From assembly GCF_963975535.1 (NCBI RefSeq), contig NZ_CAXBHE010000005.1, positions 25,172 through 89,171 on the forward strand: a stretch of 64,000 nucleotides of DNA, in the 5' to 3' direction. This DNA comes from an uncultured Brevundimonas sp. (lineage in GTDB: Bacteria; Pseudomonadota; Alphaproteobacteria; Caulobacterales; Caulobacteraceae). Position 1 is the stretch's first letter. The number at the start of each line of letters is the position of its first letter. The notes beneath the pieces were generated by a model. It was not told where the DNA came from and searched no databases. It saw only the letters and a program-made list of their open reading frames with translations. A program made the translations under genes and the position numbers. Of this stretch, positions 47,180-53,419 are shown piece by piece.

Positions 47180-47435
47180 CCACTCCAATGGCACTCTAGG
47201 CAGGAAGTCGGCAGGCGAGCGGCGGAAGGGCCCCGGCCGCGAAGGGCTGTCTGGGTCCTGCGCGGCTGGCGCTCAGCTGGAAGGAACAGTCTGGACAGGC
47301 AAGACTCGTCTCTCGGCGCGGCCAGGGCAGGCGGGAGGCGAGGCTCTCCGGCCCCCTGCCGGAACGGGGATCGGCCACCCGACAACAACACCGGCGGCGG
47401 CCTCTCCCGGCCGAGCATCGTTGGCGCTGTCGATC

Positions 47436-50400
47436 CTAGAACTTCCTGGACAGGACCAGTCGCAGGGTTCCCAGCCTCTGTCCGGCGCTGAACTGCCCAC
47501 CCAGTTCGCTCGATGCGGTCCAGCCGCTCGCAGTGGCCATCCGCAGCCCGAGACCCAATTTGATCTCGCCCCTGTCCCACCCGGCAGACCTTATCTGGTA
47601 GGTCGGCCCAGCAAGCCAGTCGGCATACTGGAGGTTCTGGGTTCCGCCATCGGCGAGCTCGTGCCGGTACTCAAGGCGCAAGCTGGGTGTCCAGGCGCTG
47701 TCGCGTTTCAGGTGGGTCACGGCGAACCCGACACCAAGCACCCCCTGCAGGGACTCAACGTCGCGCTTGGCGTAGCTGAGGGCCCAGAGTGCCGAACCGG
47801 TCTCGGTATAGGCGTCCAGCTCGGCGTTCGTTGATTCAACCCGACCGTAGCTGCTGATCCGGCCGCCGGAGAACGCCTTGTCGATACCCACCCCGATGGA
47901 ACCGAACAGAGCCACGCCATCCCGTTGGCCCGAGACCAGACTGTCATCGATGCTGACCCTGCGCCGGAGGTCGATCCTGTGCGTGCCGTACCCCATCATG
48001 GCGTCGAAATGGACACCGTCCCGGGGCCGCCAGCTGCCGTAGACCACACCCACGAAATTGGAGGTATCGACGCTGGAGTCACGCCTGCCTACGTTGGCGC
48101 TTTCCCGGCCGAAGCCGCCGCCGACACCCAGGTCGAACCGCGGCGAGACCGGAAAATCGACACCCAGGCTCACACCGGACGAGCGGACCGAGAACCTGGC
48201 CTGATTGGTGGTGGCGTCCCGTTCACCGAGGGTAATCGCACCGCCAGTCCAGAACCGCGGTCCGCCTGACGGCAGCAACCCACCATCGGTTTGGCCGGCG
48301 GCACGACGACCGGCACCGGGACTGACATCCGTGTCGGAGCCAACGCCGAAGCCTGTACCATAAGCAGGGTCCGAGCCGCCGCCCGGGGATGCGCGCTTCC
48401 GGTCGGGCGAGTCGCCCGCGCTGGACAGCAGCAGGGCGTTCAGCTCGGCCCGGTCGAGATCGACCTGGCTTTGGCCGAACATCTGCCTGCCACCGAAGGG
48501 GGGCCGCTGATCGGGCTCCTGGCCCAACCGGGTCAGACCCGAGTTCAGAGTCAGGCCCAGGCTCACGGGCTGATCCCCGGTGCCGGAGTTGAGTTGCTCG
48601 AGACGACGGCTGAAGTTTTCCATCTGCGTGCCGGTCAGACGACGGGTCGCCTCGGCCTGGGCCGCATCCAGACCACGCACGTCCGGATCCTGCGAGGGAT
48701 CAGGGCGGGCAAGGATCGACAGGCGCAGCGCCGCAGACCCGCTGTTGCCGAAGGAGTCGGTGGCAGAGACCGTAAAGTTGGCATCACCCACCTGATCGGA
48801 CTTGCCGCTGATGCGACCCGCCGAAGACAGTGTGATGCCGGTCGGCAGCGCGCCCGAGATGACAGCATAGGTGTAGGTTCCCGAGCCCCCCGAGGCGCTG
48901 AGCAGGCGGTCATAGGGCACACCGGCCATCACGTCCGGCAAGGCGGTCGGGGAGATGGTGATGACTGCGGCATTGACCTCCAGCGTCAGGCTGACGTCGG
49001 AGAAGAACGGCCCCGAACCCGTCGAGGAATCGGTCACCCGCACCACGATGGGGAAGGTACCGATCACCGTCGGGGTCCCCGAGACCAGACCCGCCGAAGA
49101 CAGGGTGATCCCGGCCGGCAGCGGGCCGGTCTGCAGGACGAACGTGTAGGGACCCGTGCCGCCCGAGCCGACCAGGGTCTGGCTGTAGGCAAAGCCGCGC
49201 TGGGCCGCCACCAGGGTCGAGGTCGAGGTCACGGTCGCTTCCCCGATGACCAGCCTGTACCGGTGGCTGGCGGTCACATTGCCGGCCCCGGCATCGGTCG
49301 CGGTCACCCCGATTTCAAAGGGGCCACCCGCCGTCGGGGTGCCCGAGAGCACGCCCGCGGAAGACAGGGATATCCCGGTCGGAAGCGGGCCGCCCGTGAC
49401 CGCAAAAGTGCATGGACCGACACAGCCGATAGCCGTCAGGGTCGCGCTGTAGGCCGTGCCCACCCTGCCTGACGGCAGTTGGAACGGCGCGATGCCCGAA
49501 ACACCCAGATAGGTGAAGTCGTCGCCTGCGCCGGCGGTGTCACTGGTTCCAGCGGGGGTGGTGACCGACACGTCCACCGCGCCCGCAGCATGCGCCGGAA
49601 CGATGGCCGTCATCGATGTGGCGCTGTCAACGTTGAAGCTGGTCGCCGCGGTCCCGCCGAAGCTGACGCCGGTCGCACCCGAGAAGTTCGCGCCTGTCAG
49701 GGTCACCGTCGACCCGCCCTCGGCCGAACCGCTTGCAGGAGAAAGGGACGCCACCGCGGGCGGGGGCACCGAACTCTCGTCCTCGACGTCGGTCACGCTG
49801 ACATAAACGGCCTGAACCGCCGAGCGACCCTGGCTGTCAAAGGCCGTGACAACGACCTCATAGCGATTGTCTCGGTCGCTGTCGGCGAGGTTTTCAAAGT
49901 CGCGACCGACCCGGAACGTCAGCGCCCCGGTCTGCTGCCCCAGGGCGAACAGCGCCTGATCCGCGCCGCCCGTGATGGCAAAGGTCACCGTCGGCGTTGC
50001 CAGACCCGGATCGTCCGCGACCAGGGTCATGATCGTCGTCTCATTTTCCGGCACGCTGACGAAGACATCGGAACGGCCGCCGCCGGAGGTGATCTGGAAA
50101 CCGCACGCCAGAGCGCGGATCTCGGCGACCTTGGCGTTGAACCGTGCGGTGATTCCGGGCGTGCCGGCCTCTTCCTCGGCTGTAATCGGATTGTCGAACG
50201 GCGGGCAGAAGGCCTGTGCCAGCAGCAGTTTCAGCTCGCCGGAGTCGCAGGCGGGCAGATCGGAGGGGGCGTTCTGGGCGGCCTGCTGGGCCTCAAACGC
50301 GGCCTGGCCGTCGACCGTGGATTGGGCCACGGCGGTCTCAACGGCCAGCTTGGCGTCATTGTAGGCCACCAGCGCCTCCGGCGACGGGAAGCGGGTTTCC

Positions 50401-51092
50401 GCAAACAGGCTGGGCGCGCCGCTGGCGACCGCATCGTTATGGACGCTCAATGCGGCGTCGCGGTAGGATTTGAGCTTCTCCAGCAGCGAGGCCTTCAGGA
50501 CCTCTTTCAGGATCTGGTCCAGCCCGAACGGGACGCCCCCGGTGAGCGAGAAGCCGATGCTGCCGGACAGATTGTCCACGTATTCCGCGGCAAAGCTGCG
50601 AATGGCCGCGTCGGGATGGTTCACCAGATCGGACCAGGTGACGCCCCTGTCCGGGGCCAGCAGGACAAGACCGCCCTGGTAGGCCCGTTCCGTGACATCC
50701 CTCACCGCCTCGAGGACCGCGACATAGGCGTACCATTTGAGGACATCCTCGGTCGTATAGGTCTTGGTGACGGTGACCGAGGCGTCGAGATTTGCCTTGG
50801 CCACGACCAGGGCCGCCCGGGCGGCGGTGACGTCCGCGGAACTGGCGACGGCCTTCAGCCGCGCCGTCTCATAGGCGACGTCGAGGGGGTGGGGACCGTA
50901 GGGTCGACCGTTCTCGAGGTTGTCGTCCGCATAGCAGCGAAACGGACTGTCCAGGGACAGGTCGGATCGACCGCGCGGATCAATGCCGAGCTGTTCAATC
51001 CCGGCCAGGGCGTTGCCGGCCCCGACCGCACCGAACAGCGTCGCCAGACCGAGGAGGCGAAGGGCCCGCAAGCAGGAGTTCACGATAAGCAT
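47436..51092 (-). CDS. autotransporter adhesin: signal peptide, unknown helical domain, cadherin, IPT/TIG, 3x putative Ig (He_PIG), beta-barrel
   Basis: Cadherin PEN...DFE...DSDRDNRYEV; IPT SLSPASG..GGSTVTLTG.NF; three LP.GI.LSS.G..SG repeats; barrel ending in LSRKF; start placed at MLIVNS. Confidence 0.9.
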   Translation of the reverse strand: MLIVNSCLRALRLLGLATLFGAVGAGNALAGIEQLGIDPRGRSDLSLDSPFRCYADDNLENGRPYGPHPLDVAYETARLKAVASSADVTAARAALVVAKANLDASVTVTKTYTTEDVLKWYAYVAVLEAVRDVTERAYQGGLVLLAPDRGVTWSDLVNHPDAAIRSFAAEYVDNLSGSIGFSLTGGVPFGLDQILKEVLKASLLEKLKSYRDAALSVHNDAVASGAPSLFAETRFPSPEALVAYNDAKLAVETAVAQSTVDGQAAFEAQQAAQNAPSDLPACDSGELKLLLAQAFCPPFDNPITAEEEAGTPGITARFNAKVAEIRALACGFQITSGGGRSDVFVSVPENETTIMTLVADDPGLATPTVTFAITGGADQALFALGQQTGALTFRVGRDFENLADSDRDNRYEVVVTAFDSQGRSAVQAVYVSVTDVEDESSVPPPAVASLSPASGSAEGGSTVTLTGANFSGATGVSFGGTAATSFNVDSATSMTAIVPAHAAGAVDVSVTTPAGTSDTAGAGDDFTYLGVSGIAPFQLPSGRVGTAYSATLTAIGCVGPCTFAVTGGPLPTGISLSSAGVLSGTPTAGGPFEIGVTATDAGAGNVTASHRYRLVIGEATVTSTSTLVAAQRGFAYSQTLVGSGGTGPYTFVLQTGPLPAGITLSSAGLVSGTPTVIGTFPIVVRVTDSSTGSGPFFSDVSLTLEVNAAVITISPTALPDVMAGVPYDRLLSASGGSGTYTYAVISGALPTGITLSSAGRISGKSDQVGDANFTVSATDSFGNSGSAALRLSILARPDPSQDPDVRGLDAAQAEATRRLTGTQMENFSRRLEQLNSGTGDQPVSLGLTLNSGLTRLGQEPDQRPPFGGRQMFGQSQVDLDRAELNALLLSSAGDSPDRKRASPGGGSDPAYGTGFGVGSDTDVSPGAGRRAAGQTDGGLLPSGGPRFWTGGAITLGERDATTNQARFSVRSSGVSLGVDFPVSPRFDLGVGGGFGRESANVGRRDSSVDTSNFVGVVYGSWRPRDGVHFDAMMGYGTHRIDLRRRVSIDDSLVSGQRDGVALFGSIGVGIDKAFSGGRISSYGRVESTNAELDAYTETGSALWALSYAKRDVESLQGVLGVGFAVTHLKRDSAWTPSLRLEYRHELADGGTQNLQYADWLAGPTYQIRSAGWDRGEIKLGLGLRMATASGWTASSELGGQFSAGQRLGTLRLVLSRKF

Positions 51093-51517
51093 CGACGCGA
51101 CCGGGGAGTGGGAATACCGCCCTCCCGTCCCGACGACAGAAGAAATGCACTCTATTGATGTACAGGCGGGGACAGACCACCCCGGGCATTGCTTGACGAA
51201 AGTTCGCTTCAGATAGTTTCGGTATCTATGACCGGCCGACGGGCTTTTGACGAGCAAAATCAGCCATCAATCTGACAATTCGACTCCCACACCCACCCGG
51301 CAGCGTCAGTAATTCACGCCTGGTCGCCCGATCGACATCCGGATTCACAGACCGCGAAGGCCGGATTTACTGATCGGACGCCGCCCAGGCTTTATCGGCG
51401 TCCAGATCGCCGGGCCGAACGACCCTCAGCCCGCCGGTCAGAGGGCACAGCGGGGGGAGGGGTCCGTCCGCCTCCGCCGACGCGCCCGACCCGGGGCCCG
51501 GGTCGTTCCGCGGCAAC

Positions 51518-51720
51518 TCAGACGTTGATGCTCTGCGGAATTTTCGACGGCATCAGATAGGCATAGGTGTGGCCGTTGGAATCGGCACCCCGCCGCGCGA
51601 TGACGGATTCAATACCGTCGAGCGTTTCCTGGAACAGGTCCAGGGCAGAATATCCTGCCAATACATCACGGCACCGACCTTGCGCTGATCCCGCAGTTTG
51701 CGGTGTCCGGGGGTGTTGAG
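51518..51720 (-). pseudogene. C-terminal relic of a bacterial lipoxygenase
   Basis: Hand translation ALDLFQETLDGIESVIARRGADSNGHTYAYLMPSKIPQSINV* matches the LOX C-terminal pattern L..FQ..L..IE..I..R ... Y.YL.PS.IP.S.NI*; a frameshift lies just upstream and there is no intact 5' part. Confidence 0.8.
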
Positions 51721-51977
51721 GTCCCGCCGCCTATTCTGTCAGCCCGGAGGCCGAACCGCGGCCGTCATGCCCGCCTGCCCCCGCGCCCGCGCCCGATCAG
51801 CATAACCGCTGCAAAGTTGATGCAAATGTTGGGAAGCTGACATATGGTGTCGGGTAAATAAATGTTCGTGTCGGCTATCGTATTTATTCGTCGGATTCTA
51901 ATTCGACAAAAGTATCTCTGTTCCTGAATATCGAATTCTTGTAGTTCCAACGGTCTCTTCGATGGGGCCCATTCATC

Positions 51978-52682
51978 GTGCGTTTCCGAAACCGCGTACT
52001 TTCATCCATAAGGGAAGAAGATATCGTCGCCCTGCGACCGCATCTGCGCGAGGTTCTCGTGGCGCGGGGACAGGTTCTGATCCCCGAAAACACGCGGGTC
52101 ACCCAGGTCTATTTTCCCAGCACCGCCATCCTGTCGAGCGTCATCGTTCTGCTGGACGGACGTCAGTGCGAGGTCTCCACGCTCGGAACCGAAGGGTTCG
52201 GCGGGGGGCTGGCCTGCCTGACCGGCGAGGTCTCGACCGAGCGCCTGTTCGCCCAGATCGCCGGCGGGCTGATCACCGTGCCCGCCGACGTCCTGAAAAC
52301 GCGGGCGCTGGCCAGTCCCGCCCTGCTGAACCTGTTGCTTCAGCGGCTCCAGGCGAGCCAGGTCGAGGCCGGACAGGGCGTGGCCTGTAACGCCCTGCAT
52401 GAGGCTCCGGCCCGGCTGGCGCGCTGGCTGCTGATGACCATGGATCGCATCGGCGCGACGGAGTTCCCCCTGACCCAGACCTATCTGGCGGTCATGGTCG
52501 GGGTCCAGCGCACGACGATCAGCGGCGTGGCCAACCGGCTCAAGCAAAAGGGCCTGATCGGCTACAGCCGGGGCCAGGTGACGATTCTGGATCCGGCCGG
52601 CCTTGAGACCGAGGCATGCGAATGCTACGCGGTCATCCGTAATCGCTCCGACGCCCTGGGCCTGGTTGACCGCCATGACTAG
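51978..52682 (+). CDS. Crp/Fnr family transcriptional regulator
   Basis: VYFP cNMP-like domain, ACNALH...RLARWLL, LTQ..LA.MVGVQRTTIS HTH, ACECY tail; GTG start. Confidence 0.93.
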   Translation: MRFRNRVLSSIREEDIVALRPHLREVLVARGQVLIPENTRVTQVYFPSTAILSSVIVLLDGRQCEVSTLGTEGFGGGLACLTGEVSTERLFAQIAGGLITVPADVLKTRALASPALLNLLLQRLQASQVEAGQGVACNALHEAPARLARWLLMTMDRIGATEFPLTQTYLAVMVGVQRTTISGVANRLKQKGLIGYSRGQVTILDPAGLETEACECYAVIRNRSDALGLVDRHD

Positions 52683-52768
52683 TCGCGCAGCGACCTTCCC
52701 CTCCCCCTCCGCCCGGGCCGTTCTGTGGATCGGCTCACCTCTTTGGCATGCTTCCCGATAGGCGACCG

Positions 52769-53419
52769 ATGTTGTCCCCATTGACCGCGCGACAGGAAGA
52801 ATGCCTGCGGCTGACGACATACCGGACCGACAAGGAAATCGCCGTCGCCCTGGGGCTTTCCGAGGCGACCGTGAAAAAGCACGTCCACGCCGCCTGTCAG
52901 CGACTGGGCGTCAACCGGCGCAAGGCGGCGCTGGCCCTTCTGGGACCAAAGGTACCAACGGCTACAAAGGACCCCATTGGTGACCTGGCTGAGGTGGGGC
53001 TTGATGCGCCTTCACCAACGGAAGACCACCATGCCCCCGATGACGGATCCCCTGCCACACTGGACCTGGGACGACCTGGAAACGGCCCTGGGTCAGTTCG
53101 ACCAGACGCAGCAGCTCGAGATGCTGCGCAGTCACCTGCTGAACGGCCTGCGCTCGGACGCGATCTCGGCGACACCGCCGGATCTGCTGGCCCAGGTGTT
53201 GAGCACAGCCTGGGTGCTGGCCCAGGTCGGCGCTTCGGCTACAGGCCCCCGCCCGGAGGCTGGGCGCTCCGCCTGCTGATCATCAGCCTTATCATCGTGT
53301 TCGGAGCCGTGATGCTGGTCGGCGTCTTCGAGATGTTGGTCCGCTATCAGCGTCAGGTCAGCGAAATCGACCGCACAGTCAGCCAGATCACTCATCCGAT
53401 CGATCCCGTTTCCCGTTAA
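52769..53419 (+). CDS. N-terminal LuxR-type HTH, low-complexity linker and C-terminal TM helix
   Basis: LTARQEECL...TDKEIAVALGLSEATVKKHV...LGV HTH; TM LRLLIISLIIVFGAVMLVGVF near the C-terminus. Confidence 0.82.
   Translation: MLSPLTARQEECLRLTTYRTDKEIAVALGLSEATVKKHVHAACQRLGVNRRKAALALLGPKVPTATKDPIGDLAEVGLDAPSPTEDHHAPDDGSPATLDLGRPGNGPGSVRPDAAARDAAQSPAERPALGRDLGDTAGSAGPGVEHSLGAGPGRRFGYRPPPGGWALRLLIISLIIVFGAVMLVGVFEMLVRYQRQVSEIDRTVSQITHPIDPVSR
53031..53279 (+). CDS. nested 82-aa protein in the +1 frame of the LuxR-TM gene
   Basis: GGAAG RBS-like motif 6 nt before ATG; 59 of the first 67 codons end in G/C; amphipathic helical sequence WTWDDLETALGQF...LRSHLLNGLR...LLAQVLSTAWVLAQ. Confidence 0.7.
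   Translation: MPPMTDPLPHWTWDDLETALGQFDQTQQLEMLRSHLLNGLRSDAISATPPDLLAQVLSTAWVLAQVGASATGPRPEAGRSAC

Follow-up and report, generated by a model that had tools for sequence, protein, structure and literature searches.

A lipoxygenase gene stub in an uncultured Brevundimonas, attributed to a single deletion that also took a neighboring gene

Among the lipoxygenases (LOXs) of known structure, the 15S-lipoxygenase of PDB entries 4g32 and 5ir4 is presumably LoxA of Pseudomonas aeruginosa, a secreted bacterial enzyme; the parent gene of the stub described here also has a signal-like N-terminus. That parent is known from its intact product, P0015 (642 aa), which like the 15S-lipoxygenase belongs to family PF00305 (E=2e-39, 136 bits; cut-off 23.6) and whose best relatives in the PDB are all lipoxygenases (8x8f, E=2e-46; 4g32, E=3e-38). 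The solved 4g32/5ir4 chain ends in ...PYEYLLPSRIPASTNI, a C-terminal motif that aligns flush with the stub. The 15S-lipoxygenase is 688 residues long, ends in Ile and is distant from P0015, whereas the copy in the window (the whole 64,000-nucleotide stretch of DNA that was analyzed) is a non-functional stub. In fungi, LOXs that terminate in Val are described as the secreted class, combining a C-terminal Val with an N-terminal secretion signal, in the part of PMC5422543 that cites Heshof et al. (2014). These valine-type enzymes, which include manganese lipoxygenase (PDB 5fno), resemble the bacterial clade both in the Val end and in the N-terminal signal, the bacterial one being Tat-like: by eye, SRRATLG at the N-terminus of P0015 looks like a Tat signal. 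However, manganese lipoxygenase is very distant from P0015 (E=5.5e-10), and nothing indicates that the Val trait was inherited from a shared ancestor. The initial annotation of this DNA had regarded the terminal Val of the stub, in place of Ile, as unusual. Of the 17 members of the LOX clade, however, 14 terminate in Val and 3 in Ile, so that Val is the norm of the clade and not an oddity of the remnant. A further point of reference is the ordinary deletion-type pseudogene of bacteria, which has the same blunt single junction, collinear flanks, segregating intact allele and absence of decay after the event. The stub shows no difference of substance from this type, the only twist being the abundance of both alleles in public metagenomes. 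It is an ordinary deletion pseudogene: a new but dead representative of a familiar family, which arose by a familiar process.

The intact gene is encoded on six ENA metagenome contigs (L006-L011), which are 98.8-99.6% identical to the window. One strand of these contigs carries rimP, bioY, trmB, metK, a 151-aa gene, the LuxR region and Crp; the divergent strand carries the gene for a 346-aa VWA7_N-like protein (P0042), the LOX gene, a 1,218-aa autotransporter, tRNA-Thr and hemD/hemC. The intact allele of the species comprises a two-gene operon, encoding the 346-aa VWA7_N-like signal-peptide protein and then the 642-aa LOX, divergent from the Crp-family regulator, and the operon is followed by the autotransporter adhesin and tRNA-Thr. 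The existence in relatives of an intact LOX-adhesin-Crp-LuxR locus had been predicted from the window, and the six contigs supply it, collinear at about 99% identity. The conspecific P0015 locus and the window share Crp on one side and the adhesin with tRNA-Thr on the other at this level of DNA identity, and the last 43 LOX residues are the same in both. The window differs in having neither LOX codons 1-599 nor the 346-aa partner gene. Four residues (His-266, His-271, His-515 and Asn-519) and the tail P-x-x-IPQS-x-N are invariant in the LOX clade, and P0015 has all four residues; we take them to be metal ligands from their motif position and from general knowledge of lipoxygenases. Unlike P0015, the window retains of the metal-binding residues only the one whose terminal carboxylate would bind the metal. 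The features of the locus are collected in Table 1.

Table 1. Coordinates of the lipoxygenase stub, its flanks and the homologues of the deleted partner gene; positions refer to the window unless a contig is named.
Feature	Position	Strand	Basis or remark
Lipoxygenase 3' remnant, codons 600-642 and TGA	51518..51649	-	Translation, tblastn, clade HMM, comparison with L006 10239-10370
Deletion junction	51649..51650		Collinearity with L006; identical junction in L100-L105
Retained part of the Crp/partner-gene intergenic region	51650..51977		Aligns to L006 up to 7051; without LOX or P0042 similarity
Autotransporter adhesin, 1,218 aa, intact; cadherin/TIG/He_PIG repeats and autotransporter beta-domain	47436..51092	-	Pfam
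Spacer from LOX stop to autotransporter start, unchanged	51093..51517	-	Collinear with L006 10371-10795
tRNA-Thr(CGT), far edge of the accessory segment	47104..47179	+	Same tRNA after the autotransporter in L006 and after the LOX remnant in L004
Crp/FNR-family regulator	51978..52682	+	HTH_Crp_2, E=5e-17
P0042 homologues	L096:8386-9402; L099:1-1020; L005:7957-8973; L012:5729-6739(-); L013:9509-10483(-)		Orientation varies

The remnant consists of 43 codons, SALDLFQETLDGIESVIARRGADSNGHTYAYLMPSKIPQSINV, and a TGA stop, encoded in 132 bp of the minus strand at 51649..51518; within it, LDLFQETLDGIESVIARRGADSNGHTYAYLMPSKIPQSINV is the minus-strand translation of 51643..51521, after which the TGA occupies 51520..51518. 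The LOX-derived part is confined to 51518..51649 and does not extend over 51518..51720. All 43 amino acids (100%) are identical to residues 600-642 of P0015, and 131 of the 132 nucleotides agree with L006 10239-10370, the sole difference being synonymous (GAC vs GAT). Translation confirms both strings described in the initial annotation, the minus-strand peptide and the frame-2 string HRKLRDQRKVGAVMYWQD (51705..51652), as written, and its reading of the peptide as the C-terminal remnant of a LOX once directly upstream of the adhesin is borne out by the 43/43 identity and the collinear flanks. The stretch YAYLMPSKIPQSINV followed by the stop corresponds to Y-x-Y-L-x-P-S-x-I-P-x-S-x-N with a terminal Ile/Val residue, and its end is flush with the ends of the PDB lipoxygenases and of all 17 clade members. 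Of a complete catalytic domain (about 550-650 residues in one frame) 43 codons are left, in a stop-to-stop frame of 70 codons; the metal-ligand helices (H-x4-H and H-x3-N) are missing, as H266, H271, H515 and N519 all fall in the deleted codons 1-599.

Database searches place the remnant in the same family. An exhaustive phmmer search with the 48-aa frame against 1.84 billion proteins gave three relevant proteins: P0003, P0002 and P0005. P0003 (642 aa), a PF00305 protein of Altererythrobacter sp. ZODW24 with the annotation "lipoxygenase family protein", matches the query end to end with residues 602-642, P0002 is a 125-aa metagenome ORF (80% identical) and P0005 is a 124-aa fragment. When the full 64 kb is searched with P0003 by tblastn, the only match is 51643-51521 (58.5% identity, E=1.6e-9). 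A clade HMM, built from 14 members with the three nearest sequences excluded and run against the full set of 1,403 six-frame pieces from the window, matches the remnant piece only (E=2.9e-12, HMM positions 599-641 of 641). The expectation of a significant LOX match in a profile search thus holds for the clade profile and fails for Pfam: PF00305 gives no match to the window peptide even at E<=10, the remnant stays below the PF00305 gathering score, and a hand-joined frameshift version of the peptide finds no LOX in Pfam. The general Pfam model is too weak for 43 residues. Against the PDB, phmmer returns nine matches, all lipoxygenases with flush-aligned C-termini, and these are weak (E about 0.9). 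Both the silence of PF00305 and the PDB E-values would suit a short intergenic frame that merely happens to look like a LOX C-terminus, but the probability of such an accident is practically nil, because the tail equals, residue for residue, the end of an intact LOX with flanks collinear to the window, and because the clade HMM and tblastn each give a single strong match in 64 kb. The lipoxygenase likeness of the remnant is far beyond chance. A PF00305 search of the 3.1-Mb genome from which the window comes (a 35-contig draft) found no LOX, although the positive controls went undetected as well, so that the case against a second, intact LOX elsewhere in the genome is weak; a pattern scan of genome contigs with the 48-aa peptide gave 599 pattern matches, none of which was confirmed, and comparison of a 700-bp region with the DNA of 41 related genomes gave chance-level matches only.

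The event that left the stub can be read from the alignment with L006. By blastn, L006 1-7051 corresponds to window 58688-51650 at 98.8% identity and L006 10239-19892 to window 51649-41992 at 99.4% (99.3-99.6% for the other contigs), so that both flanks are collinear with an intact locus, as in a deletion pseudogene. Exactly 3,187 bp (L006 7052-10238) are missing from the window between 51650 and 51649, and the same 3,187 bp are held by all contigs that span both breakpoints (5/5). Lost in this way are 289 bp of intergenic sequence, the complete P0042 gene (L006 7341-8381) and LOX codons 1-599. The direction of change is loss in the window and not insertion elsewhere, because the breakpoint cuts an ORF at codon 599/600 and because more distant lineages carry the partner and LOX genes beside Crp (L096-L098) or decayed pieces of them beside the same tRNA-Thr (L004). 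It is almost certain, then, that this is a dead 3' LOX stub and that one 3,187-bp deletion removed the rest of the LOX gene together with its partner. This deletion took all three parts at once, the 289 bp being the end of the upstream intergenic region, and joined Crp-side intergenic DNA straight to LOX codon 600. The junction, ...CAGGATAT abutting TCTGCCCTGG..., is blunt with 0 bp of microhomology; inspection of the breakpoints for microhomology, nearby repeats and IS traces found none. This favors illegitimate or end-joining repair over homologous recombination.

The term fossil, applied to the stretch in the initial annotation, is correct in so far as a LOX remnant is present, but not as regards age. 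Because tail and intact allele disagree at a single synonymous base in 132 bp, the scar is young relative to the mutation rate and is not an eroded fossil. An ancient LOX that had worn away gradually would be expected to leave further decayed segments upstream in other frames, and the frame-2 string HRKLRDQRK...YWQD does loosely recall ...KRLRSV.DYF.N of the clade; it had been put forward as a decayed LG.Y...F.D segment. However, the DNA of this string is Crp-side intergenic DNA to the left of the junction, and it stands unchanged in the intact loci, at least 289 bp upstream of the partner gene. Moreover, the clade HMM finds no other LOX-like piece in any frame of the window. Gradual erosion is therefore exceedingly improbable.

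The deletion is a natural allele and not an assembly artefact; for the genome of the window itself the support is indirect, in that the junction lies in mid-contig, involves no repeat and recurs in other assemblies. The exact autotransporter product of the window was looked up in ENA metagenome contigs, and six of the resulting loci (L100-L105) were compared. At least 23 contigs encode this 1,218-aa protein; they come from numerous metagenome assemblies, several Tara Oceans samples among them, and show up to 100% DNA identity to the window over 10-16 kb. L100-L105, which come from six samples and independent assemblies (Tara Oceans scaffolds and NODE_ contigs), are 98.1-100% identical to the window; all carry the identical junction string, the tail and flanks are invariant among them, and the intact breakpoint was absent from all six. 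The junction is thus reproducible in independent data, and its identity in six independent contigs argues for a single event that segregates in nature alongside the intact allele. The draft state of the genome (35 contigs) leaves some room for an assembler having skipped 3.2 kb of a full operon, but this is very improbable given the same junction in six contigs from different samples, whose names follow at least two schemes (TARA scaffolds and NODE_ contigs), and given its mid-contig position away from any repeat able to cause a collapse. The exact junction string had 0 matches in JGI metagenomes, and an exact look-up of the Crp product of the window returned no record. Contigs of the window type occur in many assemblies, which would fit either a very widespread strain or a recurrent laboratory or reagent contaminant. 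Brevundimonas is a frequent reagent contaminant, and the ecological meaning of the metagenome samples is uncertain for this reason.

The deletion removed a second gene, which the initial annotation did not mention. P0042 is a 346-aa VWA7_N-like signal-peptide protein (L006:7341-8381) that is absent from the window. A signal-peptide protein of 338-346 aa adjoins LOX in all the clade members that were examined, which belong to Brevundimonas, Altererythrobacter, a Sphingomonadales isolate and Litorimonas, and the homologues are 63-82% identical across these orders. Numerous His and Cys residues are invariant in the family, and only the motif HASQDFYSHSNW matches Pfam VWA7_N. P0042 has no relative in the PDB and no NCBIfam family, and its AlphaFold2 model, made from a six-sequence alignment, is too poor to use (pLDDT 42). 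The protein probably functions as a partner of the LOXs in this clade. The pairing of LOX with a highly conserved 340-aa protein suggests a two-component oxylipin module that nobody has studied; no mention of Brevundimonas was found in a survey of bacterial LOXs (bioRxiv 10.1101/2022.06.21.497025).

MetK assigns the genome to Brevundimonas. Four loci from other Brevundimonas, whose MetK is 96-97% identical, retain the Crp-LuxR-151aa-metK-trmB block; beyond Crp they carry different genes, without any trace of LOX remnants beside it. The Tara scaffolds L096-L098, whose LOX is 85% identical to P0015, have Crp divergent from a P0042 homologue and LOX, without the adhesin. The arrangement of Crp facing the partner and LOX genes is found in two lineages, and the adhesin-free Tara scaffolds imply that it is older than the adjacency to the adhesin. 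In GTDB species representatives, the nearest intact LOXs among the matches listed for two peptide patterns are 61% (a Sphingomonadales bacterium) and 55% (Litorimonas) identical, and an intact orthologue of P0015 was not found among the matches listed in the clade-alignment scan of genome contigs with two peptide patterns.

A different course of loss is seen in L004, a 1.2-kb JGI contig (JGI metagenome 3300060904, 1-1171) that is about 80-84% identical to L006. It contains a fragment of P0042, LOX codons about 322-425, closely preceded by an in-frame stop, and LOX codons about 597-642; 57 bp beyond the LOX tail lie the 3' 54 nt of tRNA-Thr (682-736), and the adhesin is lost. This is an independent, multi-step decay of the same ancestral locus. 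One L004 junction, at about L006 9716/10249, has an imperfect CTCGAC/CTGGAT microhomology and lies about 11 bp from the right breakpoint of the window (L006 10238/10239), a near-coincidence that is very probably due to chance. A decayed IS3-type transposase start is present in L004 near 1015, and a gene caller has called the fused pieces as the 125-aa protein P0002.

Third-position GC content sets the lost genes and the adhesin apart from their surroundings: GC3 is 0.79-0.81 for P0042, LOX and the adhesin versus 0.86-0.90 for core genes. The segment from tRNA-Thr to Crp (window 47180-51977; L006 7341-14452) is probably an accessory, variable slot beside a tRNA gene, its contents once imported. 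Its lower GC3, its absence from other Brevundimonas species and its independent decay in another lineage argue that the LOX module is accessory and dispensable; repeated loss, in the window and in L004, likewise suggests dispensability.

What remains in the window cannot make a lipoxygenase because the four invariant residues, presumed metal ligands, are gone. The only in-frame start for the stub is a TTG at 51661, and no Shine-Dalgarno sequence precedes it. Most likely the stub is an untranslated passenger, possibly included in whatever transcript reaches the adhesin gene. It might instead have been kept for a function located in the final ~130 bp of LOX, either as a cis element (a leader or promoter of the adhesin gene, or a processing site) or as a micro-ORF. 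In favor of this, the endpoints of the independent deletions in the window and L004 are only about 11 bp apart, so that both loci keep the same last ~42 codons, and in LOX orthologues the fraction of identical codons is 0.77-0.88 over the last ~125 codons compared with about 0.70 gene-wide. However, the rise in synonymous conservation is slight, lies within the spread of other windows along the gene and gives no clear signal, and endpoints 11 bp apart in a 1.9-kb gene have a chance of ~1%, which is unremarkable post hoc. In addition, the adhesin is wholly lost in L004, so that the two loci have no shared downstream target; the TTG lacks a Shine-Dalgarno sequence; and scans of 51200-52000 for sigma-70 promoters and intrinsic terminators found neither. 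Retention for a function is thus improbable. It is likelier that the stub simply marks a pair of genes, a signal-bearing LOX and a VWA7_N-like protein, conserved across marine Alphaproteobacteria, and likelier too that this pair is a presence/absence polymorphism within one Brevundimonas species.

As a passenger and scar, the stretch should be marked in annotation as a lipoxygenase pseudogene fragment and not as empty intergenic DNA. The presence or absence of the LOX operon in one Brevundimonas species amounts to a natural knockout pair for a bacterial LOX beside an adhesin.

The adhesin of the window is intact; it is 99.3% identical to the L006 product and has the same start. The Crp/FNR-family gene is divergent from the partner-gene/LOX operon in the intact loci and forms part of the conserved Crp-LuxR-metK-trmB core block. 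No FNR/Crp box (TTGAT-N4-ATCAA) was found in the Crp/LOX intergenic region. Two 10-nt direct repeats, GTGTCGGGTA and GTGTCGGCTA, 21 bp apart at 51847-51877, lie in an AT-rich stretch (about 45% GC) immediately before the Crp-family gene and are a possible operator. The region upstream of the autotransporter gene contains a pair of 16-nt direct repeats (51339-51354 and 51361-51376, 22 bp apart) and an overlapping 16-nt inverted repeat (51306-51321 / 51358-51373). These repeats (51306-51376) are conserved in L006 and may be binding sites for a regulator of the adhesin gene. Directly after the LOX stop, ~120 nt of the minus strand (51400-51523) can form a long imperfect hairpin with no U-tract; the sequence is unchanged in the intact alleles. 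The fold of 51400-51530 has an energy of -79.3 kcal/mol (z=-3.2), and 0/200 shuffles are as stable; it may be an operon-end or RNA-stabilizing structure. On the other side of Crp, metagenome gene callers give a 91-aa (or 82-aa) ORF at window 53004-53279 (L006 5410-5685) and not the LuxR-frame ORF at 52748-53419, and the same call recurs at this site in other Brevundimonas species (L091-L097).
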